A stretch of 64,000 nucleotides of DNA from Candidatus Omnitrophota bacterium (GTDB lineage Bacteria; Omnitrophota; Gorgyraeia; B26-G9). Below the pieces are notes generated by a model. The model was not told the DNA's origin, searched no databases, and worked only from the letters and a program-made list of their open reading frames with translations. Location: the NCBI GenBank assembly GCA_043805415.1, contig JAZDHZ010000007.1:93786-157785 (forward strand), in the 5' to 3' direction. Position numbers and translations under genes: made by a program. Each line of letters starts with the position of its first letter. Within the stretch, counting starts at the first letter, position 1. Of this stretch, positions 62,001 through 63,998 are shown in pieces.

Positions 62001-63998
62001 GGAAAAAAGCGTCATTGCCGCGACAAAAGGAGCAAAAGAAGCAGTTGTGGTAAGTGTTTTTCGCCAAGCAGTTAATCCTACTGTTTTTCCAATATCTTTT
62101 AAAGACTGCCGATGACCAATAGCAATCGCATCAGCCATTTTAGTGATCGTAGAATCAACTTGCGATAATCTTTTTACTTGGGAATTAAGCGCCCAGCCAA
62201 TCATTACTGCCCCGATAGTCACCGCCACCAAAACAACCGGGCCTAAACCAAGAAACAAACTAACCGCGCTGCCAATAACCGGCAAACCAACCGCGCTGCC
62301 GACACCGCCGATACTTAGAGCTTTAAATACCACCCCGATTAAAACAGCAAGCGCGATATTTGCCGAGATCGCGACTGAAGCAGGAATTATCTTTACAGCT
62401 AATAATTTCACGCGTTCTGAAAAAGGAATTCGATTAATTTTCGCGGCTTCTGCTTGAGCTTGATTCATCTCTCCATCTGTCGGAGCTTGCTGAGCAAGCT
62501 GAAAAGCAAGCCCAATAACATTTTTACCCAGATCATTTGCTGTATCTTGTTTCGTCTGTTCAAAAGCAGCCGCTGTTATCCGCTTGATTTCCGCGTAAAT
62601 CATCTGCGGCCTTATAAACTGTTTCTGATATCCGGAACGTGAAGATATTTTCTCTAATCTATGTTTTTTCCATTCAGATTCACTTAAAAACCGCATCCAT
62701 TTCTGATCAACAATTTCTAAAGCGCGGTTTTTAAGAATATCTTCTATAATCGCGAACAAAGCTTTTTCCAGATTGTAATCAGCAGCTTCCAAAGCGCTAT
62801 TTATTGTTTGGGCTTCTATATTACTTAATCCAAAGTCATTGTTTAAAATTTCATTTATGATTAATTCATATTGAATTTCCTGTCCAAGATCAACTCTATC
62901 ACTAATCGCCTGAGCGATTTTTTCCTTGATTGATTCAATAACATTTCGCGGGATGCCCAGCGCCGTTAAATCCCCAGTAACTATGTTTCTTCTAAACATT
63001 ACATGCTCTCTGGCAAATCCTTGACCTTTGCCCGCGCCGCTGGCCTCTTGCCACAAGAACTCACCAAAAGATTTTTGTTCTTTCTCCATGTTCTGTTTAC
63101 TATCATTAATACTTTTTCGAATTGCCGAAACAACCTTCTGGCTCTGATTAGCTGACTTAGGATCATTAGTCATGATAAACGTATGCGGCTTACCAACACT
63201 AACCTTGCTGGTTAAATAAGCTAATTTCTCGGAAATAAGCTCTTTATAATTTAAAAAATCTTCCGGCGACCAGAACCCAAAAAAGAAACCTTCTCTGCCA
63301 TCTCGTCCGCTGCGGCCTCTTAACTGAATATCTGTTTCTTCAGAGGCATCGGCACTTAATGACATAACCACCATTTTATCGCCTTTAAAATCAACTCCGC
63401 GTCCGGATATATTAGTGGATACAATAATTACTTTACTATTTTTAGAAAGCTCTTCGACCTTGTCTTTTAACATTTTTGTATCTGAAGTGGCTTCATGATT
63501 TTTAGAAACAAATTCAATAATAACATTGTCCACAGCATTATCCGCGATCAGCGAATCCAAATCATCCAAAGTCACATTTTCAATTTCATTGCCTTTTGCA
63601 TCAGTAATCTTTCCCTCCTGAGTAATCCGCGCGATATTCCGCCGCGCCATGGCCGGTTTAGCCAAAAGTTTATCCGTAAAACTTGCTACCTGATTTTCAT
63701 CATCACAGCGGACAAGTACAGCTCCGGCTTGTTCAGGAAGTCCCCAATCAGACATTTTCCTTGTCGCGCTTTGATCTGTCTTTAGAACAACTATCGCGTC
63801 AATCGCGTTTCCGATTGACTCTTCTTGATCAGAACTCAGAATAATCTGTTCTTTTCTTTTTGAAACCTTATCTAATCCGCTAAGATCTTTAAACTCTAAT
63901 CCATAATTATCAGCTGTCTTCTGTCCAATGGTAGCAGAAGCAGCGCTAATTCCGGAAACAAGCCCCAAATTATCACTCAAAATTACCGGCAAAATCAT
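38025..63998 (-). CDS. Giant multidomain membrane-associated protein, partial (>8657 aa); the N-terminus lies beyond the window end
   Basis: A 25,974-nt ORF without stops in AT-rich DNA. Contains a SecA-like ATPase region, four or more TM clusters, an M23 peptidase, two LysM domains, seven or more ~190-aa tandem repeats, a Pro-rich linker and an acidic low-complexity C-terminal tail. Confidence 0.85.
   Translation of the reverse strand: [8657 protein letters not shown]
48900..52770 (-). repeat. Region of giant ORF encoding seven or more tandem ~190-aa repeats (G-[AV]-[MS]-[IV]-GET-[HY]-[LT]-Y ... L-x-W-[QE]-[EQ]-[ILV]-[KD]-D-N-[LKF]-G-R ... F-[YF]-Y)
   Basis: Repeat units visible in translation: [133 protein letters not shown], each preceded by a G(A/V)(M/S)(V/I)GETYLYD-like block. 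Confidence 0.6.
59210..59670 (-). other. Domains in giant ORF: two LysM peptidoglycan-binding modules separated by a TPEAKQL-repeat linker
   Basis: [52 protein letters not shown] and [52 protein letters not shown]. Confidence 0.65.
59990..60380 (-). other. Domain in giant ORF: M23/LytM-family metallopeptidase
   Basis: KGFDFNMP...YGNLVIVRH...INDHLHFE; the HxH motif is encoded at 60005..60019 (plus strand ttcaaaatgcagatg). Confidence 0.7.
62440..63998 (-). other. Domain in giant ORF: SecA-like ATPase NBD2 plus helical scaffold region (aa ~1-520 of the in-window ORF)
   Basis: [14 protein letters not shown] and [23 protein letters not shown] parallel SecA TNMAGRGTDI / [54 protein letters not shown]...Y..E parallels the SecA HSD block [36 protein letters not shown]. 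Confidence 0.55.

Follow-up and report, generated by a model that had tools for sequence, protein, structure and literature searches.

A giant Omnitrophota membrane protein carries a divergent SecA-type motor beside its membrane domain

Divergent SecA DEAD and preprotein-binding domains are reported from the majority of giant transmembrane proteins in Omnitrophota, and the same study has already proposed self-export (West-Roberts et al. 2023, bioRxiv 10.1101/2023.11.21.568195). A 2026 preprint describes an architecture cluster of 20 PF07517 proteins among long Omnitrophota proteins. The placement of a motor within a giant protein is rare, yet known since 2023 from giant proteins of predatory Omnitrophota, and the view in our initial annotation that such a fusion is very unusual does not hold if read as a claim of novelty. 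Here we analyze a giant gene at one end of a 64,000-nucleotide stretch of DNA (the window), whose features are listed in Table 1.

Table 1. Positions of the giant gene and of features in the in-window part of its product.
Feature	Strand	Nucleotides (window)	Residues (aa)
Open reading frame	minus	63998 to 38028	
SecA-type ATPase, C-terminal two-thirds			first ~520
PRK09200 alignment			189-501
First quoted string (11 residues)			194-204
Second quoted string (13 residues)			225-237
Polytopic hydrophobic domain			529-944

The gene is an open frame of 8,657 codons with no stop and no N, cut off by the window end, as the initial annotation had described. The in-window part opens within the motor, at motif III, and its first ~520 residues correspond to a SecA-type ATPase that lacks its N-terminal third. 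Within NBD2, motifs V and VI are intact, and both of the sequence strings originally quoted for the motor could be located. The Pfam model Helicase_C scores 31.4 bits against a cut-off of 23.5, and the NCBIfam SecA model PRK09200 aligns over its positions 477-778 of 789 (E = 2.7e-8). When a family profile was compared with the PDB, the top matches were Thermotoga SecA (E about 1e-7), with an alignment that extends through the scaffold, while DEAD-box helicases aligned over just ~70 residues. These results uphold the assignment of a SecA-like ATPase with an NBD2 and lead us to reject a generic SF2 helicase. Judged from sequence, the similarity to SecA exceeds chance, and we conclude that the protein has its own diverged version of SecA, the motor of protein export.

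After NBD2 come a long helix and a small helical domain, and then a helix-loop-helix with the tip SRSGYQK. A block-for-block match to the SecA helical scaffold had been claimed for this region. By sequence alone, that match is weak: Pfam SecA_SW scores 14.9-16.4 bits, below its cut-off of 26.7, and a profile of the scaffold region alone found no SecA in the PDB. The scaffold is nonetheless probably retained, an assignment made mainly because of the predicted fold, which points to it moderately where sequence does so weakly.

The missing part of the motor, an NBD1 suspected to lie upstream, is present in two relatives. L003 (72% identity) scores 56 bits for SecA_DEAD and 40.9 bits for SecA_PP_bind, and L001 (37% identity) scores 39.2 and 25.6 bits, all over the Pfam cut-offs; in the PDB, the N-terminal part of L003 best matches aa 24-353 of E. 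coli SecA (E = 3.7e-10). Since the SecA_DEAD and preprotein cross-linking domains absent from the window lie upstream in both relatives, ~540 N-terminal residues of the giant protein are predicted to lie outside the window, for a whole protein of roughly 9,200 residues. The motor was originally placed at the start of the protein, but in L003, L001 and a further relative, P0002, an N-terminal hydrophobic helix comes first, separated from the motor by about 190 residues in L003 and P0002 and about 980 in L001. A frameshift artefact as the source of the fusion is rejected: the gene is collinear with L003 across >4,000 residues at 50-60% identity.

The motor is indeed fused to a polytopic membrane domain, which has 10-12 helices and is conserved in relatives. 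A conserved linker and a single hydrophobic helix follow, and then ~4,800 residues that are predicted to be exported and that include two LysM domains and an M23 peptidoglycan endopeptidase, which is intact. The cassette made up of motor, membrane domain and linker is conserved, whereas the passenger in L001 differs from that of the giant protein. From this architecture we infer self-export or injection, with self-export as the best reading: the built-in SecA-like motor, beside the membrane domain, would probably drive the outer portion of the same protein, which cuts the cell wall, through the membrane. Compared with the giant proteins of West-Roberts et al. 2023, what is new here is that the cassette is N-terminal and that the scaffold probably persists.

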